From NCBI GenBank assembly GCA_020060565.1, contig JAGVAE010000002.1:85036-149035 (forward strand): a stretch of 64,000 nucleotides of DNA, read 5' to 3'. Under the pieces are notes generated by a model. The model did not search any database, was not told where the DNA came from, and worked only from the letters and a program-made list of their open reading frames with translations. The translations under genes were made by a program, and so were the position numbers. The DNA comes from Candidatus Woesebacteria bacterium (GTDB lineage Bacteria > Patescibacteriota > Microgenomatia > UBA8517). Shown here piece by piece: positions 7,255-31,568 of this stretch. Positions within the stretch are counted from its first letter, which is position 1. Each line of letters starts with the position of its first letter.

Positions 7255-7258
7255 CACT

Positions 7259-8242: not shown

Positions 8243-8243
8243 A

Positions 8244-8849: not shown

Positions 8850-8867
8850 AAAGGCAGTTTTTGTCTG

Positions 8868-9235: not shown

Positions 9236-9238
9236 AGG

Positions 9239-11493: not shown

Positions 11494-11496
11494 TTT

Positions 11497-11718: not shown

Positions 11719-11731
11719 AATTATATTATTC

Positions 11732-14090: not shown

Positions 14091-14147
14091 ATTTTTATTA
14101 TACCAAGTGAAAACTAATCTAAGGGGTGATAAAATAACTTAGTTAGT

Positions 14148-14540
14148 ATGAAGAAGTTTATATTTAGTATTATTTTTGTTTCTGCATTTATATTTTTGAA
14201 TACTTTGATTTCGCCAAAGGTCTCTATGGCTGCTGATGTTCATGGGGGCTGTGGAGATACAGAGATTGATACAGCCATTGGCTGTGTTCCTGTATTGGGT
14301 GATGGAACAAGTGATTTTATGACTTTTATTCTTAGGTGGGCAATTGGTGTTGGGGGTGGAATTGCTTTTCTTTTGATTCTTTATGCAGGTTTTATGACAA
14401 TGACTTCAGCAGGTAATCCAGAAAGACTTAAGGCGGGGCAAGAATTATTAACAAGTGCCATCTCTGGTCTGATTCTTTTGATATTGTCCGTATTTGTTCT
14501 AAACTTTATAGGAATCAATATTTTAGGTATATTTACATAA
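14148..14540 (+). CDS. VirB2/TrbC-like propilin candidate, paralog 1; the only one with a classical signal peptide.
   Basis: 130 aa. Signal peptide (…PKVSMA), a Cys pair, then TM1, loop TSAGNPERLKAGQELLTSAISG and TM2. Confidence 0.5.
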   Translation: MKKFIFSIIFVSAFIFLNTLISPKVSMAADVHGGCGDTEIDTAIGCVPVLGDGTSDFMTFILRWAIGVGGGIAFLLILYAGFMTMTSAGNPERLKAGQELLTSAISGLILLILSVFVLNFIGINILGIFT

Positions 14541-14873
14541 ATGAAAATAGCATTAGAGAGTCCTTATAAAGGTATTAGCGTTCCTTCAAGTGGTGGAAAA
14601 ATAAATGTAAACGAAACTGATATTGGAGGTATTATTACTGGAGTTTTGCCATATATCTTTGGTGCAGCTGCAATTTTACTTTTAATTTATTTAGTTACAG
14701 CAGGTCTTTCCATGATGCTTTCTCGGGGAGAACCAAAAACAATGCAGGCAGCACAAGCAAAAATAACCAATGCTTTGATCGGATTTGTTATTGTATTTTT
14801 TGCGTTTTCTTTAGTACTTCTTGTTGGAAATATTCTTGGAGTTAATGTTTTTGAAGACATATTTAAAAAATAA
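14541..14873 (+). CDS. VirB2/TrbC-like propilin candidate, paralog 2.
   Basis: 110 aa. ~40-aa leader, then TM1, loop SRGEPKTMQAAQAKITNALIG and TM2. Abuts paralog 1 (TAAATG). Confidence 0.5.
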   Translation: MKIALESPYKGISVPSSGGKINVNETDIGGIITGVLPYIFGAAAILLLIYLVTAGLSMMLSRGEPKTMQAAQAKITNALIGFVIVFFAFSLVLLVGNILGVNVFEDIFKK

Positions 14874-15193
14874 TGAAAAATCTTGCATTAAATATTAAGG
14901 ATTCTTTTTTTGGTAATCAGGGAGCGTCTTCTTTTCAAACAATTACTGGGGTTTCTGATATTGTTTCTTTATTTCTCAAAATTTCTTTTGTCCTGGCAGG
15001 TTTAATTCTTCTTTTCTATTTTATCTTGGGTGGAATTGGAATGATTGGGAGTGCTGGAAAAAATGATCCAAAAGCGGCTGAACAGGCCAAGCAAACCATA
15101 ACATCGGCTGTTATTGGGTTTGTTGTTGTGTTTGTAGCCTATTGGATAGTAAAATTGATTGGAATATTGTTTAATATTCCAAATATTATTTAA
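14873..15193 (+). CDS. VirB2/TrbC-like propilin candidate, paralog 3.
   Basis: 106 aa. Loop SAGKNDPKAAEQAKQTITSAVIG between two TM helices. ATGA overlap with paralog 2. Confidence 0.5.
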   Translation: MKNLALNIKDSFFGNQGASSFQTITGVSDIVSLFLKISFVLAGLILLFYFILGGIGMIGSAGKNDPKAAEQAKQTITSAVIGFVVVFVAYWIVKLIGILFNIPNII

Positions 15194-15547
15194 ATGCAAA
15201 AACTACTCGCAGATAATGTCTTTGGCACAATTAAAGCACCAGATTCTGCATTTAAGGACAGTGCTACTCCCCAAGCAGCCATTGGAAACTTAATTCAGCT
15301 TGTAATCTGGATTCTTATAATTGGCGCTGGGATCTATGCATTGTTTAATTTGGTTTTGGCTGGCTATTCTTTTATGTCAGCAGGAGATGATAGTAAAAAA
15401 GTTAGTGGAGCCTGGGCTATGATTTATCAAACAATGATCGGCTTGGCTGTTGCTGCAGGATCCTTTGTGCTGGCAGCCATCTTTGGACAGTTGATATTTG
15501 GCAAATGGGATTTTATCCTTAACCCAACAATTCCAACATTACAATAA
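15194..15547 (+). CDS. VirB2/TrbC-like propilin candidate, paralog 4.
   Basis: 117 aa. Loop SAGDDSKKVSGAWAMIYQTMIG between two TM helices. Confidence 0.45.
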   Translation: MQKLLADNVFGTIKAPDSAFKDSATPQAAIGNLIQLVIWILIIGAGIYALFNLVLAGYSFMSAGDDSKKVSGAWAMIYQTMIGLAVAAGSFVLAAIFGQLIFGKWDFILNPTIPTLQ

Positions 15548-15548
15548 A

Positions 15549-15923
15549 ATGAATAATTTACTGACAGATATTAAATTGGCACCAGAGAGTGGTTTTAGGG
15601 GTTTTGGTCAGTTGGGACTTGAAGGTTTAAGTGAAGAAAGTGCGGGTACGACATTCAACACCTTTGTTTCAACTGCCATAGGTGTAATGACCATCATTGC
15701 TTTTGTGTGGTTTGTTTTTACACTTTTTGTTGGGGCTTACGGATTTATGACTGCAGGAGGGGATAAACAGGCTCTCGAGTCTGCAAAGAAAAAAATAACT
15801 ACAGGAATAATAGGTGTCGTTATTGTAATTGCCGCCATTTTCATATTCCAACTTGTGGGGTATATACTTGGAATACCAAATATTCTTAATCCTGGGGAAA
15901 TGATTAGACAAATCAGTCAATAA
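15549..15923 (+). CDS. VirB2/TrbC-like propilin candidate, paralog 5.
   Basis: Start at MNNLLTDIK, 1 nt after the stop of paralog 4. Loop TAGGDKQALESAKKKITTGIIG. Confidence 0.5.
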   Translation: MNNLLTDIKLAPESGFRGFGQLGLEGLSEESAGTTFNTFVSTAIGVMTIIAFVWFVFTLFVGAYGFMTAGGDKQALESAKKKITTGIIGVVIVIAAIFIFQLVGYILGIPNILNPGEMIRQISQ

Positions 15924-15924
15924 T

Positions 15925-16326
15925 ATGTTTATTACAAACCTTCTATTAGCACAGGGCGATATCCCTGAGGGGTGGAATGGCCCAGCAAAAGGATCTGAAA
16001 TAAAAAACCCCGCTTTAGGAAACACCTTAAACGGACTTCTTCAAGAGGGTGGTTCCGCGTTTTTTGGAACCCTAATACCAAATCTTATTGGAATCTGTTA
16101 TGTAATTGGGGTAGTTATCTTTCTTTTTATGCTTATTACAGGTGCTATTCAATGGATAAGCTCCGGTGGAGACAAACAAGCATTAGAGTCAGCAAGGAAT
16201 AAAATATCAAATGCTTTGGTAGGAATTGTAATTTTGTTTGCTGTGTTTGCAATTATAAATCTAATTGAAACGTTTTTTGGTATAAATATTATGACCCTTG
16301 ACATGGGGGCTTTAGTAATTCAATAA
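15925..16326 (+). CDS. VirB2/TrbC-like propilin candidate, paralog 6.
   Basis: 133 aa. Loop SSGGDKQALESARNKISNALVG between two TM helices. Confidence 0.5.
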   Translation: MFITNLLLAQGDIPEGWNGPAKGSEIKNPALGNTLNGLLQEGGSAFFGTLIPNLIGICYVIGVVIFLFMLITGAIQWISSGGDKQALESARNKISNALVGIVILFAVFAIINLIETFFGINIMTLDMGALVIQ

Positions 16327-16336
16327 TATAAATGTA

Positions 16337-16675
16337 ATGAATAATTTGCTTGCGGAAACAATTAATTTAAAGCCACAATCAGGTGATTTTGTGGGAATAT
16401 CTAATTTTACACTCCCCTCAATTATTTCTGCTCTTATAAAAGGAGCTATGGTTATTGCTGCTATTATCTTCTTCTTTATGTTGGTTATTGGAGGAATTAA
16501 ATGGATTGCTTCAGGTGGTGACAAAGCTCAAACAGAAGCAGCCAGGAATCAAATTACTGCAGCTCTTGTGGGTTTGGTAATAGTCTTTGCTGCTTGGGCA
16601 ATAGTTTCTCTTATAGCCACATTCTTTGGAGGGGTTAATATCTTTAATCTTACAATTCCTGAAATTGGTAATTAG
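16337..16675 (+). CDS. VirB2/TrbC-like propilin candidate, paralog 7.
   Basis: 112 aa. MNNLLAETI leader. Loop ASGGDKAQTEAARNQITAALVG. Confidence 0.5.
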   Translation: MNNLLAETINLKPQSGDFVGISNFTLPSIISALIKGAMVIAAIIFFFMLVIGGIKWIASGGDKAQTEAARNQITAALVGLVIVFAAWAIVSLIATFFGGVNIFNLTIPEIGN

Positions 16676-16722
16676 TTATCTTCTTGATCATGTTTATCTT
16701 CTAGATTAGAATTATCTTTAAT

Positions 16723-17007
16723 ATGGGTGATGGTCCTGCTAGGATTTCTGATTTGCAATTAGTTTTTGGGAATGTTGTCAAGATTGCCTTGGCGGCCGCA
16801 GGTGTGGTTCTTTTTGTTTTACTTATTATTGGAGGATTAAAATATATTACTTCAGGTGGGGATCCCAAAGCAGCCGAGAGTGCGCAAAAAACAATTACTT
16901 ATGCTATTGGAGGACTTCTTCTTATACTTGCTTCATTTCTAATCCTGGAGCTAATTAGGACAATTACAGGAGTAGATGTCACCAATTTTATTGTTACCCA
17001 ACCGTAA
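16723..17007 (+). CDS. VirB2/TrbC-like propilin candidate, paralog 8; shortest, minimal leader.
   Basis: 94 aa. Loop TSGGDPKAAESAQKTITYAIGG between two TM helices. Confidence 0.45.
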   Translation: MGDGPARISDLQLVFGNVVKIALAAAGVVLFVLLIIGGLKYITSGGDPKAAESAQKTITYAIGGLLLILASFLILELIRTITGVDVTNFIVTQP

Positions 17008-17011
17008 TTTA

Positions 17012-19501
17012 ATGTTCAAAAAACTTGCCCTCATGTTTTTTTTATTTCTAATATCTTTGGGGGCGTATCTAATTGTTTTATCTCCAACTAAGGCTGCTGA
17101 TGAAAAACCCTTTCCTAAGATTTGGCTTCCTTGTGATGAAGATAGAAATATTGAATTTCATTCCTTAAGACCTTATCAAGCCGCTCCATGTGGAGAAGCC
17201 AATAAAGCTCTCTATTGCAGTAATGACCTAATTTTTAACGAGTCTTTTGACATGGAAGGTAAAAAAGATTGCACTATGAAGTTAAGGGGCCCGGGTGAAA
17301 TAACTTTTACTTGTTATCCAGATCATCATGTTTACCCACACACACTCTATGTAAAACTTGACAATTCAGATTTTCCGATTATGGGTAACACTGAAGATGT
17401 TAAAAACAGTAAAAACTCTTCGGAAACATTGGATGATGCAGCAAAAGTTAATGAATATGTGAGCTGGTATCTAAGCGGTGTTAATACAAGGGCTGAGTAT
17501 GGAACTCCAACTGAAGATCAAGTTGTAAACTATTCAGGGCCAGTTCAAAAACTTTTACCAAGTATTATCGCTGATGCTCAAAGATCTACTGTAATAAAAA
17601 ATGTTCTTGACAATAAATCTACTAACCACAATCAAACAGTAGTGTGTGCAACAAAACCAGTTCAACTTCTTCCCTCCTGGCTAACCAACATTTTCGATCT
17701 TCCTGCTGTGGGAATTGGTACAGCCAAAGCCGTCCCTTGCTATGATGGTGGTGGTTCAATTTATAAGCTTAAAAATTGGGATCAATCTTTTATTGGTGTC
17801 GCAAAGGATCTAATTAAACCCTATCTAGATAAAATACTCTCTGTTAATTATGCCACATCTTTTATTAGTAGTGCCCTTGTTGATAGATGGAATAAAAAAA
17901 TTCCACCCCTTCCTTGGGATGATGGAACAGGAAAACCGTTTGAAACTAGTGATAAATATCAAAAAGCCTACAATGAATGGCGGGGAGATTTATGCGCTTT
18001 CTTACCAAATCCTTTTAGCAGTAAAGAATATTTGGCTTGTGTGAAAATTCCTGGTGTTACCAACAATGAATTTGCAGACCTTTTCCAATATGTTCCCCTT
18101 GCAGAGACTCCAGACAAAGCAGGGTCTGAAAGCATTATTGGGGTTTCTATTGAACCAGATGGAGGAACAAAGGTGAATGTAGTTAACTGGGGCAAAAAAG
18201 TGGATCCACCATTATTTTTTGCTCATACAGAAGAAGTAAAACAACTTTCCGAAACTTTAAATAAAACCTATATGCCCAAAGATGTTCAGAGTGTTCCTGT
18301 TCCCGAGTCTACCGAAAAAAATGTTTGCAGTGTAGTAAATGTGCGTGCAAATGCGGGGGATAATTTATTTCCAGGAGATGAAGATGAACTTCAGCTTCAA
18401 AATGTTGAGTACTACATTACAGAAGCCACCTGTCATGAAGTCTGGACCAGGAGGGAATGGGAAGATGAGTTTGGTAAAAAACATTTTGACGATAACCACA
18501 CTATCGAATGTCCCGCCGAAGTGACAATAACCATAAAAACAAACACAATGACGCCAAGTGCTAATGAAATTTTCTCAACCACAGTTGCCGATTCAATGAG
18601 TACCTTTAGAAAAATTTATCCAAAAGTTGAAGCTGGAGCTCCTGTCAGTTGTATTGCTGACATACCAACTGTTACTAATGTTGACTATGACCCCCTTATT
18701 AATAAAAGACCTGGAAGTCAAAGTCCTAACGAAGGAGCTTTATCTTTTAGGGTTGATAACAAACCATCAGATGGTGGAAATGCAACACCACAACTAACCT
18801 TTCCCCACATAGGAAGTGTCTATGAATACTTTTTAAAAGGAATCCAAACAGCCCTTCGTCCGCAGGGCTATGCAGATCCAAACCCAATAAGTGGAAATTT
18901 ATGTCAAACCACCAGTCAAGCAAATCTGGGAGATATCTGTGCGGTAGCAGATGCTTATGGTATTCCTTGTTGTCAATTAAAAGGTATCGCTGCACTTGAA
19001 ACAGGTAGTGGTGCTGGTGTTGGTAATGGATCGTGTAGTACTAAAAATGGAACATTTTCTTGTTGTAATGGTGGAATGTGTGGACCTTCACAGATTGCTT
19101 GTGGTCAATATGATGCATTTACTGGAAACGACAATATTGATATGTGCGATTCTGCAGGATCTGCAGAACTTTTGGCTCGTGCAATGCTTCTAAAATTGTG
19201 TCAGGCAGATGGAAAATGTAATTCGTATGACTGGAATACGTGGGGAAATTATGTAAAAGAAAATTACAGTGTTGGAGACGGTGACTATACAGCAGCTGCA
19301 TATTTTTACGGACTAGCCAATGACTGCACAGTTACTGCTTGTTCACAATACAGATGGGGAGCTGGAAAAAGTTATTGTGATGCTGTAAAAAGCTACTGTG
19401 AAACTGGTTCCATACTTACTTCCAATACATCTAAACAGTTTTGTGATAAATGTAATGAAGAAATTATAAGGGCTGGCCAAACCCCAATCAATTGTAATTA
19501 A
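17012..19501 (+). CDS. Large secreted protein with a C-terminal Cys-rich domain; a possible divergent lytic-transglycosylase-like region is speculative.
   Basis: Start at MFKKLALMFF…AADEK (signal peptide). ~830 aa with about 40 Cys concentrated in the last 250 aa. GIAALETGSGAG…AAAYFYG faintly recalls the SLT motifs ES…AAYNAG. Confidence 0.45.
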   Translation: MFKKLALMFFLFLISLGAYLIVLSPTKAADEKPFPKIWLPCDEDRNIEFHSLRPYQAAPCGEANKALYCSNDLIFNESFDMEGKKDCTMKLRGPGEITFTCYPDHHVYPHTLYVKLDNSDFPIMGNTEDVKNSKNSSETLDDAAKVNEYVSWYLSGVNTRAEYGTPTEDQVVNYSGPVQKLLPSIIADAQRSTVIKNVLDNKSTNHNQTVVCATKPVQLLPSWLTNIFDLPAVGIGTAKAVPCYDGGGSIYKLKNWDQSFIGVAKDLIKPYLDKILSVNYATSFISSALVDRWNKKIPPLPWDDGTGKPFETSDKYQKAYNEWRGDLCAFLPNPFSSKEYLACVKIPGVTNNEFADLFQYVPLAETPDKAGSESIIGVSIEPDGGTKVNVVNWGKKVDPPLFFAHTEEVKQLSETLNKTYMPKDVQSVPVPESTEKNVCSVVNVRANAGDNLFPGDEDELQLQNVEYYITEATCHEVWTRREWEDEFGKKHFDDNHTIECPAEVTITIKTNTMTPSANEIFSTTVADSMSTFRKIYPKVEAGAPVSCIADIPTVTNVDYDPLINKRPGSQSPNEGALSFRVDNKPSDGGNATPQLTFPHIGSVYEYFLKGIQTALRPQGYADPNPISGNLCQTTSQANLGDICAVADAYGIPCCQLKGIAALETGSGAGVGNGSCSTKNGTFSCCNGGMCGPSQIACGQYDAFTGNDNIDMCDSAGSAELLARAMLLKLCQADGKCNSYDWNTWGNYVKENYSVGDGDYTAAAYFYGLANDCTVTACSQYRWGAGKSYCDAVKSYCETGSILTSNTSKQFCDKCNEEIIRAGQTPINCN

Positions 19502-19545
19502 CAAAACCCCTTTGATTTTTTATCTCAAAGCTATAGAATAACTTA

Positions 19546-21150
19546 ATGTCTATCCTGCTCAAAAAAGTTCTGTTATCTTTTCTTTCCTTTTTTGTATTAT
19601 TCTTTTCTGTTGCTCCAAATTTTGCAATTGCCAAGGCCCAATCTACAACTTGGTACAATCAAGACTTCAAAACCTGGTTTGGAAAAGTATCGGACGAAGG
19701 TAACCCGCAAGAGATTTTTGGAGAACGCTATACATCTGCTCAAGTTGAATGGGTCATATATGGGGTATTTGCCTTCTTTATAAATCACGTTACTCCTCCA
19801 GGAACCGCAGGTACTTGTATTAATGGTGATATCACGGGTTGTATCGGTGCAATTAGTGCTTATTTCAGTTCAATATCCTATGAAGATAAAACGAACGAGA
19901 GCCTCGCACAACTTGTTTTTGCAGATCGCCCCCTTTCAGGAATTTCATATGTCAAACATACTATACAGAAATTTGGTTCAGTGCCTACTGCTCATGCACA
20001 AAGCCCTGGTTTTGGCTTCTCGGCACTTTCTGGTCCTATTCAGGATATGTGGAATGGTTTTAGAAATATAGCTTTTGGATTGTTTGTTCTTGCAACTGTT
20101 GCTTTTGCTTTTATGATTATGTTTCGAGTTAAAATTTCTCCACAAGTTGTTATTACTGTTCAATCTGCAATTCCAAAAATTGTTATTTCATTGATCCTCG
20201 TTACTTTTTCCTATGCAATCGCAGGTTTTTTAATTGATCTTATGTACTTGGTTATTGGTTTTATCAGTTTGATCATGGCCCCATTAATACCAAATGTATT
20301 ACTGTTAAATTCAGTCAATTACAATGCCACAGATTTATTTAAACTTCTAACGGTAGGCCAGACAATTGGGATTGGAACTGGTGGTTTCAATGGAATTTTA
20401 CTTCTTTTAGGAATGTATCTTACTCCTTTATTTTTAATCCTTCTCGTTTTCGCTGCACTTTTTCTTGCTATTGCATTTATACCAGGTGCTCAAGTGTTCG
20501 GGGTCGTATTAATGTTATTAACTCTAATTATTATGTTGGTTATTGTTGTATTGGCAATGTGGATGTCTATTAAAATAATGTGGGCACTTTTCAAAGCCTT
20601 TGCAAACATCGTCCTTCTTACCATCTTTGCTCCAATACAGCTTGTTGCGGGGGTAATTGTGCCCAATTTTGGCTTTGGTCAGTGGGTAAGAAGTTATTTA
20701 TCACACCTTGCGGTTTTTGTAGTAACGGGTGTTTTGTGGCTACTTTCTTACATTTTTATGTTGCATGCTTGGGCAGGTATTGGCGATGGCTCCTCTTTAA
20801 CCCTTGCTGGCTCAAACGTAAGTCCCTGGCCACCCCTTCTGAATGTTGGTGGTGGAACATTCTTTATTTTTACTGGGGTTAGTTTTGTGCTTTTTACAAT
20901 GATTCCAAAAGCAACCGAACTAGTACAATCACTTCTTGCAGGTAAGCCATTTGCGTACGGAAGTGCAATTGGTGAAGCCTTTGGACCAGTCACAAAAGGT
21001 GTGGGAATAGGAACTGGGTTTGGAGCAACTTACTTGTCAGAGTTGGGTGAAAGTCAGTTAAGATCAGGTAGCGAAGCAGTAAGAAAACAAGGTAAAAGTA
21101 ATTTAACGAAAGGTTCTGCCTTAAAAGTTATGCAGGGGTTTTTTAGATAA
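19546..21150 (+). CDS. VirB6/TrbL-like polytopic membrane protein (PrgH/TcpH-like).
   Basis: Signal peptide, a ~190-aa extracytoplasmic domain, at least 6 TM helices and a Gly-rich C-terminal tail. The topology and its position in the locus fit the VirB6 family. Confidence 0.45.
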   Translation: MSILLKKVLLSFLSFFVLFFSVAPNFAIAKAQSTTWYNQDFKTWFGKVSDEGNPQEIFGERYTSAQVEWVIYGVFAFFINHVTPPGTAGTCINGDITGCIGAISAYFSSISYEDKTNESLAQLVFADRPLSGISYVKHTIQKFGSVPTAHAQSPGFGFSALSGPIQDMWNGFRNIAFGLFVLATVAFAFMIMFRVKISPQVVITVQSAIPKIVISLILVTFSYAIAGFLIDLMYLVIGFISLIMAPLIPNVLLLNSVNYNATDLFKLLTVGQTIGIGTGGFNGILLLLGMYLTPLFLILLVFAALFLAIAFIPGAQVFGVVLMLLTLIIMLVIVVLAMWMSIKIMWALFKAFANIVLLTIFAPIQLVAGVIVPNFGFGQWVRSYLSHLAVFVVTGVLWLLSYIFMLHAWAGIGDGSSLTLAGSNVSPWPPLLNVGGGTFFIFTGVSFVLFTMIPKATELVQSLLAGKPFAYGSAIGEAFGPVTKGVGIGTGFGATYLSELGESQLRSGSEAVRKQGKSNLTKGSALKVMQGFFR

Positions 21151-21166
21151 TTAAAAACAAGAGTTA

Positions 21167-23269: not shown

Positions 23270-23885
23270 ACAACAAAGGATGGTGGATCAGACTTTTCAA
23301 AAAAGCCGTTCGAGTGAAGAAAAGCTAGAACTAGATCAATGTCTATACGCAGAGAAAAACATTCCGATTATAAAAGCGAGACTTGACGAGCTTATTAAAA
23401 ATATCAACACTTCTGTTTTCGACAATAAGGGCTCTGTAATACCATGGAAAGTAACTATTGGTAAAAGCCCTCGTTCACATAATGAGGGAGGGAACTCTAT
23501 ATATGAATATGGGGAAGGATACGGTATTGTTGGTGGCCACGATGTTTTTGATGGTTGGTTTCTCACCAGAGAGCAGGACACTGAACTCAAAGTTGGCAGC
23601 CTATTCCAATTACAAATCAAGTTAATTTTTCCACTTACCGAAACAAACACTGCAGGTCAAATTAATAGACACTCCAATAAATATTTTTCCATTTTTGGTT
23701 TTATGTCTGGAGATTTGTTCCACAATCACGAAAGCGGAACTTTTTACAGGAGCTATAGCAGCCTTTCAATTCATAGAAATTTCTACTTAGATAATCCAAA
23801 CGAACTCGTAGCGGAATTTGGTAACAAATTAAAAGAGGAATTGTTAGGACTTAACGATTTTCAGAACCATTCTCCAAAAAATTAA
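23205..23885 (+). CDS. Hypothetical protein.
   Basis: ORF 23166..23885 with internal start MEFDKIK. Would overlap the 5' end of the divergent 700-aa ORF unless that gene starts later. Confidence 0.25.
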   Translation: MEFDKIKTAVANFFDRNEKLAIQQRMVDQTFQKSRSSEEKLELDQCLYAEKNIPIIKARLDELIKNINTSVFDNKGSVIPWKVTIGKSPRSHNEGGNSIYEYGEGYGIVGGHDVFDGWFLTREQDTELKVGSLFQLQIKLIFPLTETNTAGQINRHSNKYFSIFGFMSGDLFHNHESGTFYRSYSSLSIHRNFYLDNPNELVAEFGNKLKEELLGLNDFQNHSPKN

Positions 23886-24341
23886 CAAGAAATGAAGGGT
23901 TTGTACTTGTGAAAAGGGGTGTCCATTGCAATAAAACAGTAAGCTATTTGAATATATCTTTCCCCAATTCTTTGGCTTGATCAAGAAAAAAATCTTCCAT
24001 CTTTTTTCTATCCTGTTAAACGGATAATAATTAAAATCCACTTTTAGCTCCCCATCTGGAAAAAATAATGTATACGTATGAAGCCCTAAAAATTGGCGGT
24101 GAATAATTTTCTTAACGAACATTTTACTACCAACAATACCAATAAACTTGTTTATGCTAGGTAAATGAATTTCTTGGTTTTCTGAAAACAGATCAATATC
24201 GTGAGACTCTCTATGTTTTAAGTAAAATTCTGAAAGAACGGTTCCACCTGTCAAATAAAACCGTTTTAATAAATAGGGTTCTTTTAGGACAAATTCGAGA
24301 AATTCTTGCTGATGCTTATCGAGGATGGTTTTGTTCCCCAT
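23844..24341 (-). pseudogene. AbiEii/DUF1814-like nucleotidyltransferase, probably truncated or frameshifted.
   Basis: The N-terminus KRFYLTGGTVLSEFYLKHRESHDIDLF matches the AbiEii GGTAL…R.SxDIDf motif. Reading continues in another frame (MEDFFLDQAKELGKDIFK*) across an A7 homopolymer near 23990, and the total length is far below the family norm. Confidence 0.35.
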
Positions 24342-24633
24342 ATTAGGTATTCAAAATATTCTTTGGTCTTTTCGTCAATTTTCTTATTTATATATTTCCA
24401 GGAATTTTTAACCTCTGAGAGGGAAATTTTCTCTCCATCTAAACCGTAATTTATCATTTGTGTTAGTCTCCAGAGTTTATATTCCTTGGGACTATTTTTC
24501 TTAAATTTTACCTCATCGGTGGACCAATTAATCATGACTAATTATATCATTTTTGCTGTGAAAAGGGATTCTTATTGCACAAGTTGCTTCACGTTGTAAT
24601 CTTAACCTAGAGTAGACAACTTCTACTGCCCAT

Positions 24634-25674
24634 ATGGAACAACACGCAATACCACAAAACGTAAGTTCATATCAATTTAAGTTGGTTGGGGATATGACTC
24701 TTAAGCAGTTTTTTCAACTTGCTGGAGGAATTTTAGTTGGAGTAATTTTTTATTCTGCTCCCTTACTTGGAATTATTAAATGGCCTTTGGCAATTCTTTC
24801 TGTTCTTTTAGGGGTTGGGCTTGCTTTTCTCCCTCTTGAGGAGCGTCCCTTGGAAAAGTGGATTTTTGCTTTTTTTCGTGCAATATATGCTCCCACCCTT
24901 TTTAATTGGAAAAAGGCTTTATCTCCTCCTAAATTTTTTCAGGATGAACCAGCGGGTTCCACTCCCGAACAAGATGCTGCTCTTAAGGGTTATCTGACAA
25001 CAACCAATCAAGCCTCTGGTGCTTCTGCAAATTTGGATAAAGCTGAAATTGGTTTTTTTTCAAAGCTTGCTGGACTTTTAACAGGAACTATCAGTGTTAT
25101 TCCTTCTGCCAAACCTGCTACTCCAACTGAGGCTACTTCTCAAAAGCCAGTTGAGTTGAAAGTACCAGAAAATGCTCCAGTTAGAATTCAAACAGGTGCA
25201 TCACATTTAGTGGTTGAGGAAAAACCAAAGATTGCTACTGTCCAAAACCAAGTCACTGTTAATGCTGTTGCCCCAATTGTAGCGGGAGATGAAATGATTT
25301 CTACAAAACAGGCAATTTTTTCAGTTGATGCAGCCCCACCCAATCCCCCAACTATACCCAATGTGGTTGTGGGACAAGTGGTTGATCAAGACAGAAAAAT
25401 TATTGAGGGGGCAATAATGGAAATACGAGACTCAATGGGAAGACCAATAAGAGCCTTAAGGAGTAATCGTGTGGGACATTTTCTTACAGTCACACAGCTT
25501 GATAATGGACACTACGAAATAATTACAGATAAAGATGGTTATGAGTTTGTTGCGGTTTCTTTTGATGCAAATGGTGCCTTGATTCCTCCAATTTTAGTTC
25601 AAGGAAAAAGATTGGGACCAGTGGTTGAGGATATTCCCGTTGGAATTGTTAAACCAGCCTATTCAATAAATTAA
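24634..25674 (+). CDS. PrgI/VirB3-like membrane protein with a long C-terminal extension.
   Basis: The N-terminus IPQNVSSYQFKLVGDMTLKQFFQLAGGILVGVIFY plus two TM helices matches the PrgI-family pattern, and the gene sits directly upstream of VirB4. Confidence 0.45.
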   Translation: MEQHAIPQNVSSYQFKLVGDMTLKQFFQLAGGILVGVIFYSAPLLGIIKWPLAILSVLLGVGLAFLPLEERPLEKWIFAFFRAIYAPTLFNWKKALSPPKFFQDEPAGSTPEQDAALKGYLTTTNQASGASANLDKAEIGFFSKLAGLLTGTISVIPSAKPATPTEATSQKPVELKVPENAPVRIQTGASHLVVEEKPKIATVQNQVTVNAVAPIVAGDEMISTKQAIFSVDAAPPNPPTIPNVVVGQVVDQDRKIIEGAIMEIRDSMGRPIRALRSNRVGHFLTVTQLDNGHYEIITDKDGYEFVAVSFDANGALIPPILVQGKRLGPVVEDIPVGIVKPAYSIN

Positions 25675-25675
25675 A

Positions 25676-26392
25676 ATGAAACCAAAACTTAACAGTTTAA
25701 ATATTCCCAAGATTCCGTATTTAAGTGTTCCTGACAAACCTATTGTTTCAACCTCTCAGAACCACTTACCAATTGCGGATGTTACCAATGATGTTGTTCT
25801 TTATAAAGATGGTGGGGCTGCTCTTGTTATGGAATCTACATCACTAAACTTTGGCCTTTTAAGTGAAAAGGAGCAAGGAGCCGTCATTGCGGCCTATGCT
25901 GCAATGATTAATTCTCTTTCTTTTTCGATACAAATATTAGTTCGAACTCAAAGGAAAGATATAAGTTCATACATAAGTTATATTGATGAACAAGCTAAAA
26001 AACTAACACATCCCCTTCTTCAAAAATTAATGGCTGAGTATAAAGGATTTATCTTAGATTCTGTTAAAAAGAAAAACGTTTTAGGAAAAAGATTTTTTGT
26101 AATTCTCTATCTTTCCCCACTTGAACTTGGAGTTGGAAAATCATTGGCCGTTGTCACAAAACGAGGAGTTACACTTCCTTTTTCCAAATCCTATGTTATT
26201 AAAAAAACAAAAATAACACTTTATCCAAGACGGGATCATCTTATAAGACAAGCTGGCAGACTTGGAATTAAATTTAGACAACTTACCACCAACGAGCTTA
26301 TTGATCTTTTCTATACCGTCTATAATCCTGAACATCCAGCAGTTAAAAAAGAACCTGAAGTAATATTAGAAAGGAGAGAGTCCAGTGGATAA
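25676..26392 (+). CDS. VirB4/TrbE N-terminal domain encoded as a separate ORF.
   Basis: IADVTNDVVLYKDGGAALVMESTSLNFGLLSEKEQGAVIAAYAAMINSLSFSIQILVRTQRKD…YISYI and RFFVILYLSP follow the CagE_TrbE_VirB N-terminal consensus. The stop overlaps the next ORF by 8 nt. Confidence 0.55.
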   Translation: MKPKLNSLNIPKIPYLSVPDKPIVSTSQNHLPIADVTNDVVLYKDGGAALVMESTSLNFGLLSEKEQGAVIAAYAAMINSLSFSIQILVRTQRKDISSYISYIDEQAKKLTHPLLQKLMAEYKGFILDSVKKKNVLGKRFFVILYLSPLELGVGKSLAVVTKRGVTLPFSKSYVIKKTKITLYPRRDHLIRQAGRLGIKFRQLTTNELIDLFYTVYNPEHPAVKKEPEVILERRESSG

Positions 26393-28229
26393 CAATACAA
26401 AACCAATAGTCCAAGCACCAACCCAGCCATCTAGCCATCCAACCATTCAACCTTCACCTCAGTCTGAGGTAAAACCCAAGATTGTAAGTCCTGTGGCGGC
26501 TGTTGATGGGGGAGCTAGTGTAATTGATGTCATAGCTCCCCAAGCGATTGAGCAAGATTTTGATTATTTTAAAATTAATGATGTTTATTTCAGAACCATC
26601 TTTGTAGGGGGCTATCCAAGGTTTGTTGCTCCTGGTTGGTTGGAACCCGTTGTTAATTTTGACTCCTCCTTGGATATTTCTTTCTATGTTTATCCAGTTG
26701 ATGGAAAAACAGTACTTGATGATCTAAGACACAAGATTGCAGAGATGGAGGCGGAAATCTCAACAGACATAGAACGTGGAAGAATAGTGGATCCTTCCAC
26801 CCAAGCCAAGCTTGAAGATGCAAGGAGCCTTCAGGAACAACTAGTTAAAGGAATTGAAAGATTTTATGAGTTTAGTTTCTATATAACCATTCCCGCCAAC
26901 AATCTTGAGGAATTAAACCATGTTACAAAACAAATTGAATCTCAACTTGGATCTCTTTTAATTGTCAGTAAGCATGCACTTCTTGATCAGGAGTCGGGTT
27001 TTCTTTCAACTGCTCCTTTTGGAATGGATAGGTTAAATATTACAAGAAACATGGATACGACTTCTGTTGCTACAACTTTTCCTCTAACTTCAACCGAACT
27101 TTCCAGTGACCGCGGTGTTCTTTACGGAATAAACTCTCAAAATGAGTCTTTTATTATTTTTGATAGATTTTCTTTGGAGAATGCCAACATGACAATTTTT
27201 GCCACCTCTGGTGCAGGTAAATCTTATTTTGTAAAACTGGAGGCAGTTCGCTCCCTCATGATTGGAACTGAGGTAATAATAATTGATCCTGAAAGTGAAT
27301 ATAAACCATTAACACAAGCAGTTGGGGGCGAATATATTTCATTTTCTTTCAACTCTCCTGCCAAAATCAATCCTTTTGATTTGGCACAAATTAGAGAAGA
27401 AGGAGAAAACCAATTGGGTCAAAAGATTCTTTCCCTTCACTCTCTCATGAAAGTTATCATGGGTGCAATCACTCCCACCCAAGAAGCCCTTCTTGATCGC
27501 GCCCTTATCATGACCTATCGCAATAAAGGAATAACAATGGACCCAGATACACAGTCCAAAGAACCCCCACTAATGGAAGATCTTTATAAAACCCTAATTG
27601 GTATGGAGGTTCCTGATGCTTTAGACCTTGCTGCTCGGCTTGAGAAATTTGTAAGAGGGTCATTTGTGGGAATATTTGATAAACAAACAAATATAAATAT
27701 TAACAATCCTTTTACTGTTTTTTCTATTAAAGATTTACAGGACGCACTACGTCCCATCGCCATGTTTACAATTCTTGATTACATTTGGACAAGGGTTAAA
27801 AAAGACCTCAAGAAACGCATCTTAATCGCCGAAGAGGCCTGGCAAATGATGAAGTACCCCGATACCTCAGCCTTTTTGTGGAGTGTTGTTAAAAGGGCAC
27901 GTAAATATTATTTGGGCTTAACTACAATTACTCAGGATGTTGAAGACTTTTTAAGCCAGGATATTGGAAAAGCCATTGTTACAAATAGTTCCATGCAAGT
28001 ACTTCTTAAACAATCTCCTGCTGCAATTGATAAGATTGCGGAAGTTTTTTATTTGAGTCAGGGGGAAAAACAATTATTACTTGCTGCAAATGTTGGAGAG
28101 GGAATTTTCTTTGCAGGACCACACCATGCTCCAATTAGAGTTATTGCTAGTGAGGATGAAAATAAATTGATCACAACCAAACCACAAGAAATGATGATGA
28201 TAAATCCAAATGCATATGAGGCAAAATAA
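26385..28229 (+). CDS. VirB4/TraC-family T4SS ATPase (C-terminal ATPase part), GTG start.
   Basis: Walker A FATSGAGKSYFVK and Walker B RILIAEEAWQMM. The middle region DYFKINDVYFRTIFVGGYPRFVAPGWL is typical of VirB4. Confidence 0.8.
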   Translation: MDNNTKPIVQAPTQPSSHPTIQPSPQSEVKPKIVSPVAAVDGGASVIDVIAPQAIEQDFDYFKINDVYFRTIFVGGYPRFVAPGWLEPVVNFDSSLDISFYVYPVDGKTVLDDLRHKIAEMEAEISTDIERGRIVDPSTQAKLEDARSLQEQLVKGIERFYEFSFYITIPANNLEELNHVTKQIESQLGSLLIVSKHALLDQESGFLSTAPFGMDRLNITRNMDTTSVATTFPLTSTELSSDRGVLYGINSQNESFIIFDRFSLENANMTIFATSGAGKSYFVKLEAVRSLMIGTEVIIIDPESEYKPLTQAVGGEYISFSFNSPAKINPFDLAQIREEGENQLGQKILSLHSLMKVIMGAITPTQEALLDRALIMTYRNKGITMDPDTQSKEPPLMEDLYKTLIGMEVPDALDLAARLEKFVRGSFVGIFDKQTNININNPFTVFSIKDLQDALRPIAMFTILDYIWTRVKKDLKKRILIAEEAWQMMKYPDTSAFLWSVVKRARKYYLGLTTITQDVEDFLSQDIGKAIVTNSSMQVLLKQSPAAIDKIAEVFYLSQGEKQLLLAANVGEGIFFAGPHHAPIRVIASEDENKLITTKPQEMMMINPNAYEAK

Positions 28230-28231
28230 GT

Positions 28232-30973
28232 ATGGTAAAATATTATTCCCCACCAGAAACTCTTGAAACAGACCGTGACTCTTTAGAAAGCCTAATTAAA
28301 TCAACTGAATACGCTTTTAAGGGAGATTTGTTTGGTGGGAGCGAAACCAACCTTTCTCTTTCTCAACCTTTTACCTCTCCCGACGGTAAGTATCGCTGGC
28401 AAAGTGTAAAAGATTTCTTTATTTATATTACAGACTTAACAAAAACTGGAAACATTAAAGTGGCAAACGCTGTTCTTTACGACAATCTTGCCAAAGCGCC
28501 AAAATATGTTGAATTTAAAGGAGCTGAAAAATCCCCTGTTGACCAAACACTTCCACAAAAAGGAATTCTTGAACAGTTTGAAAAGGAGATGGAGACAAAA
28601 GAGGCCGGAAGGAAAAAGGTTGTTGAAGAATCTGATAGACAAGTCCGAGCAGCAATAGAAAAACAAAAAGAAGTATATAAAGCAACTATTCAGGAACAAA
28701 TAAAACAAGCAAAAGAGGCTGAAGTCAATCTTAAAGGTAAAAAGATATATGTAAAAGTTGAAGATCCTGATATTGAACAAGTACCTGAAGTTAAAAGCTT
28801 AAAAGAACAGGCAGAGGTAGATCCTAAAAAATTTATTGAGGATGCATCAAAAGAATTTGGTAAAAACCCAAACATTAAAGATTTATCTATTGATGAACAA
28901 ATGGCTGCAGCAAAACAAGCTTCTCTTACAAGCTACGAGGTATTGACTAACAATTCTCCACTCGTCCAAGCAGCTGTTATTAACAAAGTTGCCTCAGACC
29001 CTAATACTAAAAATTATTTAGAGAATGCCGCAGCCTCTCTAGTCAATCAAAAAATGTCCCAACTTGAGCTAAGTAAGGTGTTTTTTGATTCATCAAAAAT
29101 AGATGGACACAAAAATATCAACGATATCAATGTCGAGATTTCCTATACCCCAAAGCCTGGATTTAAAGAATACGACTTAAACGAACAGATAATTAGACCC
29201 CACCTTGAAAACTTGAACCATCAAAATCTTTTAGTTGACACTTTTAAAGATTTTAGTGAAGGGGAAATAAAATCGCGTATTTTACTAGGAATTGGTGGTC
29301 GAATAGAAGCTCATGTTGCAAAACTTCCTGCGGGGAGTCTAGTTGCCAAAGCATATAGGTCAGACGTGGTTCAACTAGGAATGTCTTCCATGGGTTTTGT
29401 TAGAGCTGTTCCTGTTGCTGCGGTTGAAGGATCTATTGTGGGAGAAGTTATTACCGCTTCTGGGTTAGGGAACGCTGCTTTGGTTGTTCAAGCTAAAACA
29501 GGTATAAATTTAGGTGTTAAGTTGGCTGCCAAAACTAGTGCAGAAACTGCAGTTAAGGTTGGTGTTGAAACCACTGTCAAAGCAGGCGTTTCAACTGCAG
29601 CAAAAACAGGGTTTAAAGGACTACTAGCAAAAATTGGAACTTCTCTTTTTGGAACAGCTGCTGGCGGACCGATAGGATTCATCGCTACTTGGATTGGCAC
29701 AGATGTTTTATTAAAACTTGTCGAAAAAATCCCTTGGGGAAAAATTAAAAAGTTTGGTGTAGCAATTGCCTCTTTTATTGTGGGCGTCCCAATGCTTGCA
29801 ATAGGACTTACAATGGCCAACGCTCCTTTGACACTTGGCGGTTTTGGTTTAACAGCTTTTGGTGCTGCTTCTGCAAAAGGACTTACATTAGCTGGAACTG
29901 TTGGTGGAGCATTTAAATTGTTTGGTGTGATTGGAACAGCAACCCTGGGAGCAATCGGGGGACCCATACTTTCTTTTTTGATTGGTTTTCCATTAGTTGT
30001 TGCCTTGATTTTGTTTATAATAAATTCTGGAGCCTATGTTGTTCCTGAATCCTCTTTGTCTTATTCAAAGGGACAAGATAATCCATATTTGTCTGTAACG
30101 AAAGAGGCAAACCCCGGAAAAATAAGTAATCCTTCAGGAAACCAACCTGTCTCATTTACTGTTTCAGTTACTGCCACCAAAACTACACTTACCAACGTAA
30201 AAATTGAATCTACATCTTGTAATGTAATCAAAAAAGATGGGTCGAATGTTGGGTGTCCTTTAGAGAATATTCAAGAATTACCTGCAGATTTAAAACTTTC
30301 GCCAGGAAACCCTTATGTTTTTGATTTTTCTGTGGATTTTGGATCAAACCTTTCAGATTCGTTAGTTTTTGATTCCATTAAGATTAGTGCAGACTCAGAC
30401 GAACAAAAAGGTATTACAACTTCGGGGTCAGAAACCGTCTGTGTGGGAGAGTGTCCAGTTGATTGTGTTAAAGTTGAAGACAACGCAATGCCCTGGCCAG
30501 GAAATCTGCGAGCAAATCTTGAAGCCGCCGTTGCCTCTCTTTCTGGAGGTCACCCTGGCTTTATAGCAAAAGTGTGTAGTAACAATAAAGAAGTAAACCT
30601 TTGTTATAATCCCCCACAAATAAGTGAGGGGTATTTTGCGTGGCATATACATACTGATAGCTGTGATGTTGTTTTTAATCAAAAAGGTCTACAAAGTGAA
30701 AAGGATGCTCTTTTCTTGGTAACTCACGAATTAACACACCATATCCAAAAAATAGTTGGTGGTAGTGTTCAGGAATATTTAGATTCAGGGGGTTTTAGGG
30801 AATTGGCAGGGGAGGGTTTTTGTACTTACAAAGACACTGCTAATGATGTTTACGAGTCCATGGCTGAAGCCTTAGGTCTTTATGCATCAATTCCTTCATG
30901 GGGAGGGTGTGCAGCCAACTACAGAACCAAGTATCCAAGAAATTATGTTTTTGCAGAAGGTTTTATGAAGTAA
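28232..30973 (+). CDS. Large protein with an N-terminal charged/coiled-coil region, a central Gly/Ala-rich membrane region and a C-terminal HExxH zincin-like domain.
   Basis: 913 aa. Glycine-zipper-like hydrophobic block from about residue 380 to 600. Near the C-terminus, LVTHELTHHIQK carries the HExxH motif, within a Cys-containing region (CVGECPVDC…). Confidence 0.45.
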   Translation: MVKYYSPPETLETDRDSLESLIKSTEYAFKGDLFGGSETNLSLSQPFTSPDGKYRWQSVKDFFIYITDLTKTGNIKVANAVLYDNLAKAPKYVEFKGAEKSPVDQTLPQKGILEQFEKEMETKEAGRKKVVEESDRQVRAAIEKQKEVYKATIQEQIKQAKEAEVNLKGKKIYVKVEDPDIEQVPEVKSLKEQAEVDPKKFIEDASKEFGKNPNIKDLSIDEQMAAAKQASLTSYEVLTNNSPLVQAAVINKVASDPNTKNYLENAAASLVNQKMSQLELSKVFFDSSKIDGHKNINDINVEISYTPKPGFKEYDLNEQIIRPHLENLNHQNLLVDTFKDFSEGEIKSRILLGIGGRIEAHVAKLPAGSLVAKAYRSDVVQLGMSSMGFVRAVPVAAVEGSIVGEVITASGLGNAALVVQAKTGINLGVKLAAKTSAETAVKVGVETTVKAGVSTAAKTGFKGLLAKIGTSLFGTAAGGPIGFIATWIGTDVLLKLVEKIPWGKIKKFGVAIASFIVGVPMLAIGLTMANAPLTLGGFGLTAFGAASAKGLTLAGTVGGAFKLFGVIGTATLGAIGGPILSFLIGFPLVVALILFIINSGAYVVPESSLSYSKGQDNPYLSVTKEANPGKISNPSGNQPVSFTVSVTATKTTLTNVKIESTSCNVIKKDGSNVGCPLENIQELPADLKLSPGNPYVFDFSVDFGSNLSDSLVFDSIKISADSDEQKGITTSGSETVCVGECPVDCVKVEDNAMPWPGNLRANLEAAVASLSGGHPGFIAKVCSNNKEVNLCYNPPQISEGYFAWHIHTDSCDVVFNQKGLQSEKDALFLVTHELTHHIQKIVGGSVQEYLDSGGFRELAGEGFCTYKDTANDVYESMAEALGLYASIPSWGGCAANYRTKYPRNYVFAEGFMK

Positions 30974-30983
30974 AATAAAATAT

Positions 30984-31568
30984 ATGGGAAAAGTTTTTAA
31001 TTTTATTAAAAAATATTGGGTTCTAATTTTGATAGCACTAATGCTTGTGTTGGTTATTATTGATAAATTTATTATTCCTGATAAAAAAGTCTCCCAAACT
31101 GTTTCAACCCCAAAATCAAACAGGGTTGCTGATTACAAATCAATTCAGCCTGGAAAAAGTAAGCTAGAAGAAATTAATAGTCTTTTAGGTTATCCAATTG
31201 AACAGAGTGAAAAGGATGGAAACATAATTGCCGAATACAGATCTTCAAGTAATTATAGAAATAATCTTGTGACTGTACAAAATGGAGTAGCTACTTTGAT
31301 TAAAGAAATTGTTACCGCAACCGACAATAAAAAATCTCAAGACATAATACAAGAATATGGCGAAGCTCCTTTTGTTCTCTATGACCAAAAACCTAGTTCA
31401 ACTTTCAATTTGTATGTTTATCCCACAAACGGAATCGCCTATCTTGGACATGAAGATGGAACCTTACTTGAAGTCTGGTATTTCCAACCAATTGATATTG
31501 ATTCGTTCATTTCAACCTGGGCAAAAGATTATTCTAAAGAAAAAACAACTGAGACCTTAAAATATTAG
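30984..31568 (+). CDS. Bitopic membrane protein; could be a VirB8-like component (speculative).
   Basis: N-terminal TM anchor (WVLILIALMLVLVII) plus a ~165-aa extracytoplasmic domain. It is the last gene of the locus. Confidence 0.3.
   Translation: MGKVFNFIKKYWVLILIALMLVLVIIDKFIIPDKKVSQTVSTPKSNRVADYKSIQPGKSKLEEINSLLGYPIEQSEKDGNIIAEYRSSSNYRNNLVTVQNGVATLIKEIVTATDNKKSQDIIQEYGEAPFVLYDQKPSSTFNLYVYPTNGIAYLGHEDGTLLEVWYFQPIDIDSFISTWAKDYSKEKTTETLKY

Follow-up and report, generated by a model that had tools for sequence, protein, structure and literature searches.

The 64-kb window analyzed here, from a Woesebacteria-like (Microgenomatia) genome, very probably carries a chromosomal, origin-proximal type IV secretion system (T4SS) of the Patescibacteria type and of MPF-FATA descent, as judged from the content and order of its genes. 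The locus occupies 14148..31568, where all coordinates are positions in the window. Loci of this kind have already been published for Patescibacteria (PMC12102498; PMC10633639; PMC12857230), and the window adds no new type of system. We compared the locus to 66 related loci, numbered with the prefix L, which were collected in a scan for VirB4 proteins in species-representative genomes. In this comparison, the envelope-exposed parts of the apparatus appear far more changeable than its ATPase core, and a cell-wall hydrolase domain seems to be exchanged together with the gene that follows it.

Gene content and chromosomal setting

The locus consists of two plus-strand units. The first contains eight divergent VirB2-like pilin genes, a gene for a cysteine-rich protein of 830 amino acids (aa) and a polytopic VirB6-like candidate, while the second contains genes for PrgI/VirB3-like, TrsD-like and VirB4 proteins, a membrane-anchored protein in the hydrolase slot and a bitopic partner. 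Between them, on the minus strand, are a gene for a hyper-divergent soluble protein and a decayed AbiEii remnant. The features are as follows, with transmembrane abbreviated as TM and open reading frame as ORF:

12387..14090, minus strand: secreted coiled-coil protein of 567 aa with a SpoIID domain (lytic transglycosylase type), divergent to the pilin array
14148..14540, plus strand: VirB2-like pilin paralog 1, 130 aa (PF18895, 28.6 bits)
14541..14873, plus strand: VirB2-like pilin paralog 2, 110 aa (PF18895, 32.1 bits)
14873..15193, plus strand: VirB2-like pilin paralog 3, 106 aa (PF18895, 39.2 bits)
15194..15547, plus strand: VirB2-like pilin paralog 4, 117 aa (too divergent for a Pfam match; TM-loop-TM in the alignment)
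15549..15923, plus strand: VirB2-like pilin paralog 5 (PF18895, 30.6 bits; weak TrbC/VirB2 match, PF04956)
15925..16326, plus strand: VirB2-like pilin paralog 6, 133 aa (PF18895, 25.6 bits against a cut-off of 26.6; aligns with the other seven)
16337..16675, plus strand: VirB2-like pilin paralog 7, 112 aa (PF18895, 43.4 bits)
16723..17007, plus strand: VirB2-like pilin paralog 8, 94 aa (PF18895, 34.2 bits)
17009..19501, plus strand: secreted Cys-rich protein, 830 aa (signal-peptide-like N-terminus; an ortholog in the same place in 18 loci)
19546..21150, plus strand: polytopic membrane protein, 534 aa, about 11 hydrophobic segments, candidate VirB6 analogue
21167..23116, minus strand: p700, soluble protein of 649 aa in the slot between the VirB6-like gene and the PrgI gene (homolog searches)
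23844..24535, minus strand: degraded AbiEii-type toxin-antitoxin remnant (frameshifted AbiEii N-terminal fragment at 23844..24341 and an 83-aa ORF at 24284..24535)
24634..25674, plus strand: PrgI/VirB3-like protein, 346 aa (PF12666, 29.3 bits; cut-off 27)
25676..26392, plus strand: TrsD-like protein, 238 aa, a separate ORF for the VirB4 N-domain (NF041427 TrsD, E 3.8e-6, below the curated cut-off)
26385..28229, plus strand: VirB4 ATPase, 614 aa, MPF-FATA / CD1110-like (NF045971, 373 bits; cut-off 325)
28232..30973, plus strand: 913-aa membrane protein in the T4SS cell-wall-hydrolase (VirB1/PrgK-like) slot (domains of orthologs)
30984..31568, plus strand: p194, bitopic protein of 194 aa, putative cognate partner of the HExxH domain (co-occurrence and AlphaFold2 fold)
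31575..32690, minus strand: dnaN, origin-region context outside the apparatus (ORF and conserved synteny)
32898..34271, minus strand: dnaA, origin-region context outside the apparatus (ORF and conserved synteny)

All ORFs named in the initial annotation of this DNA were recovered in the ORF map, and its description of a Gram-positive-type T4SS-like locus beside oriC was borne out by the pilins, the PrgI/VirB3-like protein, VirB4 and the dnaN-dnaA genes with their cluster of DnaA boxes. Five DnaA-box-like sites were found in the dnaN-dnaA intergenic region (32755..32900), and one perfect box is located at position 34293.

The 66 loci with related VirB4 proteins all appear to belong to Patescibacteria, as stated in every informative record title, which would be consistent with membership of the window's VirB4 in the Patescibacteria clade. 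The nearest named relatives are Woesebacteria/Microgenomates, with VirB4 identities of up to 91%. Many records of Woesebacteria-like metagenome-assembled genomes (L006, L007, L010, L013-L015 and others) are titled “uncultured Gammaproteobacteria”, “Alphaproteobacteria” or “Saccharibacteria”, and these labels seem unreliable. About 35 of the 66 loci, from Woesebacteria/Microgenomates with VirB4 identities of 69-91%, have the gene order of the window next to dnaN-dnaA. The conserved order starts with the Cys-rich protein, the polytopic protein, a large minus-strand ORF, PrgI, the TrsD-like protein and VirB4, and continues with a large membrane protein, a small bitopic protein, dnaN, dnaA, rnpA, yidC, jag, a wzy-like gene and an RNase H gene. 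The GC content is even across the whole window, the locus included. Because the gene order recurs and the GC content is uniform, we consider the locus to be a vertically inherited chromosomal feature and no recent mobile element; the earlier argument against a recently acquired conjugative element is thus upheld by the finding of the same order beside dnaN-dnaA-rnpA-yidC-jag in about 35 genomes. A scan for promoters and terminators gave no enrichment over shuffled sequences and was uninformative on operon structure.

The core of the apparatus is formed by three ORFs. The PrgI/VirB3-like assignment of the first of them is confirmed by a Pfam score above the cut-off. This protein has two N-terminal TM helices (TM segments at residues 26-63), followed by a C-terminal extension that weakly matches an Ig-like (CarboxypepD_reg-like) domain (PF13620, E 8.5e-4), and its gene is located directly upstream of TrsD-VirB4 in 47 loci. 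The two ORFs that follow cover complementary parts of the VirB4 model NF045975, with the TrsD-like ORF aligned to positions 105-234 (E 8e-6) and the ATPase ORF to positions 294-893. A TrsD ortholog has a weak match to the TraC-like family PF26593, and a PDB sequence-profile search with the TrsD family gave no match. The ATPase also matches TraG P-loop/AAA_10 models as well as PF19044, PF12846 and PF01935, has the Walker A motif ATSGAGKS, and contains a peptide, EEAWQMMK, that is conserved enough to serve as a search pattern for the locus.

The VirB4 ATPase had been described as a single gene at 25676..28229, of which the identity as an ATPase stands, by the match to NF045971, but not the single gene, which is replaced by two translationally coupled ORFs that share 8 nt, and the GTG start of VirB4 is preceded by an AGGAG ribosome-binding site. 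A TrsD match was obtained in 64 related loci, of which 59 have the split. The other five (L052, L055, L057, L058 and L065), which are distant Patescibacteria with VirB4 identities of 43-47%, encode a fused TrsD-VirB4 protein of about 795 aa, and the split in Woesebacteria is therefore lineage-specific. Taken together with the frameshifted AbiEii fragment inside the locus, the division of VirB4 into two ORFs could be read as a sign of a decaying remnant with a broken ATPase, an inserted toxin-antitoxin fragment and orphan genes. We find this explanation hardly credible, since the split is the rule among the relatives and comes with a ribosome-binding site and an overlapping start, all 17 genes of the locus are intact ORFs, and the same arrangement is essential in Southlakia (PMC10633639). 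In four other loci (L044, at 10001..17879, L046, L062 and L064), the VirB4 match extends over just 52-62% of the query, with an unusual resumption or end, and the ORF in the hydrolase slot of L044 is 2012 aa long; the odd VirB4 regions could be insertions, inteins or extra domains.

The propilin array proposed in the initial annotation is real. Of the eight small ORFs in 14148..17007, seven match the T4SS_pilin family PF18895, six of them above the gathering score, and all eight align as a TM segment, an SGGDPK-like loop and a second TM segment, with mutual identities of 16-26%. Paralog 1 differs from the other seven by its long signal-peptide-like leader and by the presence of Cys residues, and the start codon of paralog 5 could be either the TTG at 15498 or the ATG at 15549.

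The signal-peptide-like N-terminus and the high Cys content of the secreted 830-aa protein were also confirmed, with 32 Cys residues in total and 19 within the last 205 residues. The body of the protein (approximately residues 1-635) is conserved among the orthologs, and the Cys-rich C-terminal part of about 200 aa is variable. The last 205 residues are shared, among the related loci, with L003 only, and the protein is thus a second case, within the locus, of a C-terminal module that can be replaced. No Pfam or NCBIfam match was obtained for the 830-aa protein, and a PDB profile search gave only MltC at E=1. The ortholog in L032 has a lysozyme-like SLT_3 domain (PF18896) at its C-terminus, and BLASTP gave no support for the C-terminus of the window's protein being the same domain; SLT-like motifs in this C-terminus were spotted by eye and are a lead and no more. 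The 830-aa protein is possibly a pilus-associated adhesin and/or lysozyme-like. The SpoIID-domain protein upstream of the array may be functionally tied to the T4SS, because a homolog is also located upstream of the locus in L021.

The 534-aa polytopic protein had been proposed to be VirB6/TrbL-like. No match to VirB6/TrbL (PF04610) or PrgH profiles was detected in Pfam or NCBIfam for this protein at E-values up to 0.1, so the profile check did not bear out the assignment. Nor was any Pfam domain found in more than 1400 homologs, and a PDB sequence-profile search with the family gave no match. The AlphaFold2 model (pLDDT 74, with a TM core near 90) was compared to known structures with Foldseek, and the top five matches were TrwI/VirB6 of plasmid R388, with weak E-values of 0.046-0.2 and probabilities of up to 0.98. 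The fold searches also point weakly to DotA. The place of the gene upstream of PrgI-TrsD-VirB4 is kept in 30 loci. The weak but specific fold similarity, together with topology and position, suggests a reasonable VirB6 analogue and at most a putative member of the family.

Pfam scans of essentially all ORFs of at least 110 aa in the 64-kb window identified no VirD4/TraG coupling protein, relaxase or VirB11, in agreement with what had been noted earlier for this window. Over about 14 kb on the upstream side of the locus and 32 kb on the downstream side, no relaxase or coupling protein was found, and two unannotated orphans of 611 and 495 aa have no Walker A motif. None of the features that mark an integrative conjugative element was found in the window around the T4SS genes, whether relaxase, coupling protein, oriT, integrase or attachment sites, and the flanks are housekeeping genes in conserved synteny. 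An ordinary element of this type, with relaxase, coupling protein and oriT just outside the window, is very improbable. It would agree with the conjugative MPF-FATA / CD1110 type of the VirB4 and with the presence, about 9 kb upstream of the locus, of a serine recombinase (3734..5305) directly next to a tRNA-Ser gene. However, the order of the flanking genes (dnaN, dnaA, rnpA, yidC, jag, and SpoIID in L021) is kept in dozens of genomes with VirB4 identities down to 69%, the GC content of the locus equals that of the rest of the window, and tRNAs, tmRNA and smpB stand between the recombinase and the locus. To this should be added the lack of relaxase and coupling genes over the flanking distances given above, and the finding of relaxases in just 103 of the 3035 Patescibacteria genomes surveyed (PMC12102498).

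The lack of a relaxase or coupling protein nearby also agrees with a machine for DNA uptake, similar to archaeal Ced or ComB of H. pylori, which would import host DNA as a source of nucleotides or for transformation. Dependence on external nucleotides is plausible for a reduced genome, T4SS and competence genes co-localize in the ABY1 class (PMC12102498), and the VirB4 shows a weak superfamily likeness to CedB/CedD (NF041017, E 5.5e-13, far under the cut-off). Such a likeness would, however, be shown by any VirB4, and no competence genes adjoin the locus. In Southlakia, moreover, competence depends on type IV pili and ComEC, and deletion of comEC abolishes transformation and leaves viability unaffected, whereas the T4SS is essential (PMC10633639; PMC12857230). 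We therefore regard a role in DNA uptake as unlikely.

Joint exchange of the hydrolase domain and its partner

The 913-aa protein downstream of VirB4 begins with a coiled coil, followed by a Gly-rich TM region (TM segments at residues 505-594), an Ig-like middle part and a C-terminal zincin-like HExxH domain (approximately residues 745-913). The full protein has no Pfam or NCBIfam match, but a profile built from 34 orthologs matches M23 peptidases (ShyA, E 1.5e-15), and the orthologs end in Peptidase_M23, CHAP, Amidase_2 or Peptidase_M15_4 domains. The family members have in common an invariant FIINSGAYVVP motif as well as the coiled coil at the N-terminus and the TM region rich in Gly. The HExxH domain was found in the window's protein and nine others, with an invariant HExxH, three Glu residues and conserved Cys residues, so that the coiled-coil/HExxH protein of the initial annotation is present with a motif that is invariant among the ten family members carrying the domain. 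By sequence, the 913-aa protein occupies the cell-wall-hydrolase slot, and its own HExxH domain is putative and unclassified, of a zincin-like kind.

The small bitopic protein p194 gave no Pfam, NCBIfam or PDB sequence-profile match. Its AlphaFold2 model (pLDDT 91) has a tandem helix-plus-four-strand fold that matches DUF4309/BLIP/BamE-type and immunity proteins, and the fold search returned no VirB8 or NTF2 match. The gene for p194 is present in 10 of 43 loci, exclusively those in which the hydrolase has the HExxH domain. Three further homologs were identified in unrelated metagenomes, each located between an HExxH protein and dnaN, and the pairing thus holds in 13 of 13 loci (10 related and 3 independent metagenome loci). 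From its modeled fold, p194 is a candidate inhibitor, immunity protein or regulator of the HExxH domain.

The initial annotation had suggested that p194 is VirB8-like. As expected of a channel scaffold of the VirB8/PrgL kind, p194 is bitopic and its extracytoplasmic domain has a suitable size, and VirB8 is otherwise missing in these systems. The gene order in pCF10 is prgJ (VirB4), prgK (hydrolase) and prgL (VirB8-like), and p194 likewise comes directly after the hydrolase. However, the fold is of the BLIP/BamE/DUF4309 type, and p194 was found beside the HExxH domain only, with unrelated proteins (Big_5, PEGA and others) in its place elsewhere. Because it is confined to the HExxH loci and swapped for unrelated proteins in the others, p194 is unlike a core channel subunit, and we consider the VirB8 assignment, which also fails at the level of the fold, to be improbable.

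To type the hydrolases and their partners, the C-termini of the hydrolases were clustered on their last 160 aa and the partners were clustered after removal of the TM segments. The domain type of the hydrolase and the family of the downstream gene co-vary, and a downstream family of its own goes with each of the six or more domain types. The combinations include the following:

HExxH hydrolase domain: p194-type partner, 10/10 loci
Divergent M23 domain: Big_5 partner of 150 aa, 5/5 loci
CHAP domain: Big_5 partner, 3/3 loci
Amidase_2 domain: partner of about 380 aa, 3/3 loci
Main M23 group: partner of about 340 aa in 13 loci and PEGA partner in 4

In a tree of VirB4, dnaA and dnaN, the cassette types are interleaved. 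The HExxH/p194 combination appears at no fewer than seven separate places, and the sister genome of the window carries CHAP/Big_5. The closest relatives of the window by HExxH/p194 (L043, L020 and L021) are the most distant by dnaA. The identities of HExxH and p194 are correlated with each other (rho 0.68) more strongly than with those of VirB4 (0.51 and 0.41). These patterns indicate that the catalytic domain of the hydrolase and the downstream gene have been replaced jointly, as a cassette, and repeatedly across the tree. The cassette also fits the layout of polymorphic effector-immunity systems, which have a conserved N-terminal part, alternative C-terminal domains and, as it would appear here, a cognate downstream gene.

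Identities also differ markedly among the proteins of the locus. Between the compared genomes, VirB4 is 81-91% and DnaA 66-87% identical, and in the same genomes the polytopic protein is only 35-46%, the Cys-rich protein 29-51% and the hydrolase 25-41% identical. In broader terms, the core (the N-terminus of PrgI, TrsD and VirB4) is 60-90% identical, as compared to 25-50% for the envelope-exposed parts, the pilins included. Some envelope parts thus appear to be swapped or to evolve far faster than the ATPase core.

The minus-strand slot and other genes in the window

The slot between the VirB6-like gene and the PrgI gene is occupied by p700, the ORF of which extends to position 23269 (700 aa); the public gene call starts at MSDGP. 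A soluble minus-strand ORF of 469-1083 aa was found in the same slot in all 30 relatives that have both flanking genes. The slot proteins are rich in Lys and Glu and have no signal peptide or TM segment, and several of them begin with an N-terminus similar to M-P-D-G/N-M-S/T-P-E-N. No Pfam domain was identified in 37 proteins from the p700 slot, p700 itself had no NCBIfam match either, and a PDB profile search with the p700 family was also blank. A Walker A-like sequence in p700 (AAYLYGKS) was judged to be a chance match.

Homologs of p700 are few, with 10 identified in a search of 5.8 billion proteins and 15 in a search of 1.84 billion representatives. Comparisons with hhalign between the sequence clusters of slot proteins gave nothing significant. 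Three bridging matches (P0189, P0191 and P0193) hit both p700 and slot proteins of other clusters, and together with jackhmmer they tie p700 to at least ten slot ORFs, those of L001, L002, L004, L008, L009, L011, L014, L017, L024 and L046. The bridging homology covers slot clusters c1, c4 and c5, while c2, c3 and c6 stay unlinked. As far as sequence comparison can tell, p700 is a member of a hyper-divergent, locus-specific family and a fixed tenant of the slot.

The AbiEii fragment next to p700 matches PF08843 (E 2.3e-6) over model positions 11-69 of 238 only, and the remnant is present at this position in this genome only, with no counterpart found there in the related loci. It is the sole genuine insertion in the locus. 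The earlier view of the whole minus-strand block as an insertion therefore holds for the AbiEii remnant, which is genome-specific and frameshifted, but not for the 700-aa ORF, since the slot is filled in 30 of 30 relatives.

The remainder of the window was found by Pfam to contain housekeeping genes, tRNAs and a tmRNA, NUDIX hydrolases and one serine recombinase. The features upstream of the locus include:

3370..3798: MerR-type helix-turn-helix gene (Pfam scan)
3734..5305: large serine recombinase with Resolvase, Recombinase and Zn-ribbon domains, the 3' end of which overlaps tRNA-Ser (5275..5362)
9658..11493, minus strand: 611-aa orphan ORF without a Pfam/NCBIfam match or P-loop, between smpB and a gene for a membrane protein with a bacterial PH domain

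The first two of these may be a small integrated element or a remnant, unrelated to the T4SS locus. A cluster of RNA genes at 5275..9661 contains four tRNA-Ser genes and one tRNA-Arg gene, followed by the tmRNA (8865..9235, tag ADASPASDYQGYNLAFA) and smpB (9239..9661). Three separate NUDIX hydrolase genes are located at 5378..5923, 5875..6342 and 53790..54218. Downstream, an RNase H/RVT_3 gene (37602..38027) follows the wzy-like gene, as it does in relatives.

Relation to known systems and proposed function

We also compared the locus to published systems. In a survey of 3035 Patescibacteria genomes, Quinonero-Coronel et al. (2025; PMC12102498) described a VirB4 clade that is monophyletic and lies within MPF-FATA, with TrsD-like ORFs next to virB4, homologs of PrgI/VirB3, and tandem arrays of 2-11 VirB2-like pilins with about 25% identity, especially in Microgenomatia. 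Relaxases were found in 103 genomes only, VirD4-like genes were present in most Patescibacteria genomes but usually distant from virB4, and the T4SS was often located beside dnaA/dnaN, which was read as a gene-dosage effect. The window shares with this clade the MPF-FATA-type VirB4 with a TrsD-like ORF just upstream, the PrgI/VirB3-like protein, the divergent tandem pilins, a peptidase/hydrolase gene directly after virB4, the lack of a relaxase and of a nearby coupling protein, and the dnaA/dnaN neighborhood. In Microgenomatia, the survey found VirB6 homologs to be scarce and few VirB3 homologs to be associated with virB4 (PMC12102498). Here, in contrast, PrgI adjoins TrsD-VirB4, and the VirB6-like candidate is recognizable by fold and position alone. 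The Patescibacteria T4SS surveys consulted here do not mention cassette swapping, the hyper-divergent minus-strand gene or the variable Cys-rich C-terminus, and a fold-level VirB6 candidate for Microgenomatia is likewise undescribed in them.

With the enterococcal systems Prg/Pcf of pCF10 and Tra of pIP501, the locus shares a single-membrane architecture without VirB7/9/10 and the gene order VirB6-like, PrgI (VirB3), PrgJ (VirB4), PrgK and a small bitopic protein. PrgK, a membrane-anchored multidomain peptidoglycan hydrolase, occupies the same slot as the 913-aa protein. In contrast to these systems, the window locus has no relaxase, coupling protein (PcfC) or oriT, it contains VirB2-like pilins, which are absent from Gram-positive systems, its VirB4 N-domain is a separate ORF, and its small bitopic protein is not NTF2/VirB8-like. 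The locus is also chromosomal, vertically inherited and origin-proximal.

A third comparison was made to the effector-immunity modules Tae/Tai of type VI secretion systems and X-Tfe/X-Tfi of the T4SS in Xanthomonas/Stenotrophomonas (Zhang et al., 2012; PMC3482391). Shared features are the interchangeable C-terminal, putatively wall-degrading domains on a conserved N-terminal part, a cognate small extracytoplasmic protein after each domain, and a partner fold similar to that of enzyme inhibitors and immunity proteins. In the window, however, the enzyme is encoded in the secretion locus as an integral membrane protein and is not a soluble translocated effector, some of the partners are Ig-like or PEGA proteins, and no orphan cassettes were seen.

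In the proposed mechanism, VirB4 and TrsD docked on PrgI and the VirB6-like channel would power the assembly of a VirB2-type pilus and/or export through a single membrane. The anchored zincin-like HExxH hydrolase would cut peptidoglycan locally, either in the cell's own wall or in that of the host at the contact site, and the partner with the BLIP/BamE fold, placed on the same side of the membrane, would restrain or direct it. The apparatus as a whole would serve host contact and the transfer of proteins or other non-conjugative transfer. In Southlakia epibionticum, transposon sequencing showed that growth on the host requires genes SEML1_0006-0019, a pilin array among them, and this T4SS locus is also without coupling and relaxase proteins (Wang et al., 2023; PMC10633639); the findings are covered again in a 2025 review (PMC12857230). 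Host contact with non-conjugative transfer is the most likely function, because no relaxase or coupling protein is located nearby and the homologous system in Saccharibacteria is essential for epibiotic growth. A non-conjugative role, as suggested in the initial annotation, has likewise been proposed in the literature (PMC12102498; PMC10633639).

A more specific proposal, which we put forward tentatively and with more doubt than confidence, is that the hydrolase/partner cassette, a swappable head that cleaves peptidoglycan (in the window a new zincin-like HExxH domain) with a matched protein of inhibitor fold, is built into the secretion machine and exchanged among lineages to track the walls of different hosts, and that the minus-strand protein is a translocated substrate or effector. 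The fast-evolving and swapped envelope parts would fit selection by host surfaces. Several points weigh against the main reading of the locus and its mechanism. The other cassette partners carry Ig-like Big_5 or PEGA domains, which are more like surface scaffolds than inhibitors, and searches of Pfam and PDB returned nothing for the HExxH domain, which thus has no recognizable relative with a known activity. In VirB4, the Walker B-like motif ILIAEEAW (residues 479-486) has EEAW and not the usual DEAW. The absence of coupling proteins holds for the 64-kb window only, and such genes are usually far from virB4. Finally, the function is inferred by analogy from a different class, the Saccharimonadia. 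If the more specific proposal on the cassette and the minus-strand protein is true, the locus would be the host-breaching organ of Woesebacteria, with a first candidate cargo.

Patescibacteria comprise maybe a quarter of bacterial diversity, and almost none of them have been cultured. The T4SS of this group provided, in Southlakia, the first demonstration of a secretion system that an epibiont needs for its survival. For Microgenomatia, the least-understood class, the window offers several handles, namely a fold-level VirB6 candidate, a presumed VirB8 slot that would be taken by a hydrolase partner, a repeatedly swapped hydrolase/partner cassette and a fast-evolving soluble protein of the locus. 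The cassette and the soluble minus-strand protein behave as if under host-driven selection, and they may therefore be the best places to seek the means by which the host envelope is opened and the cargo of the system.

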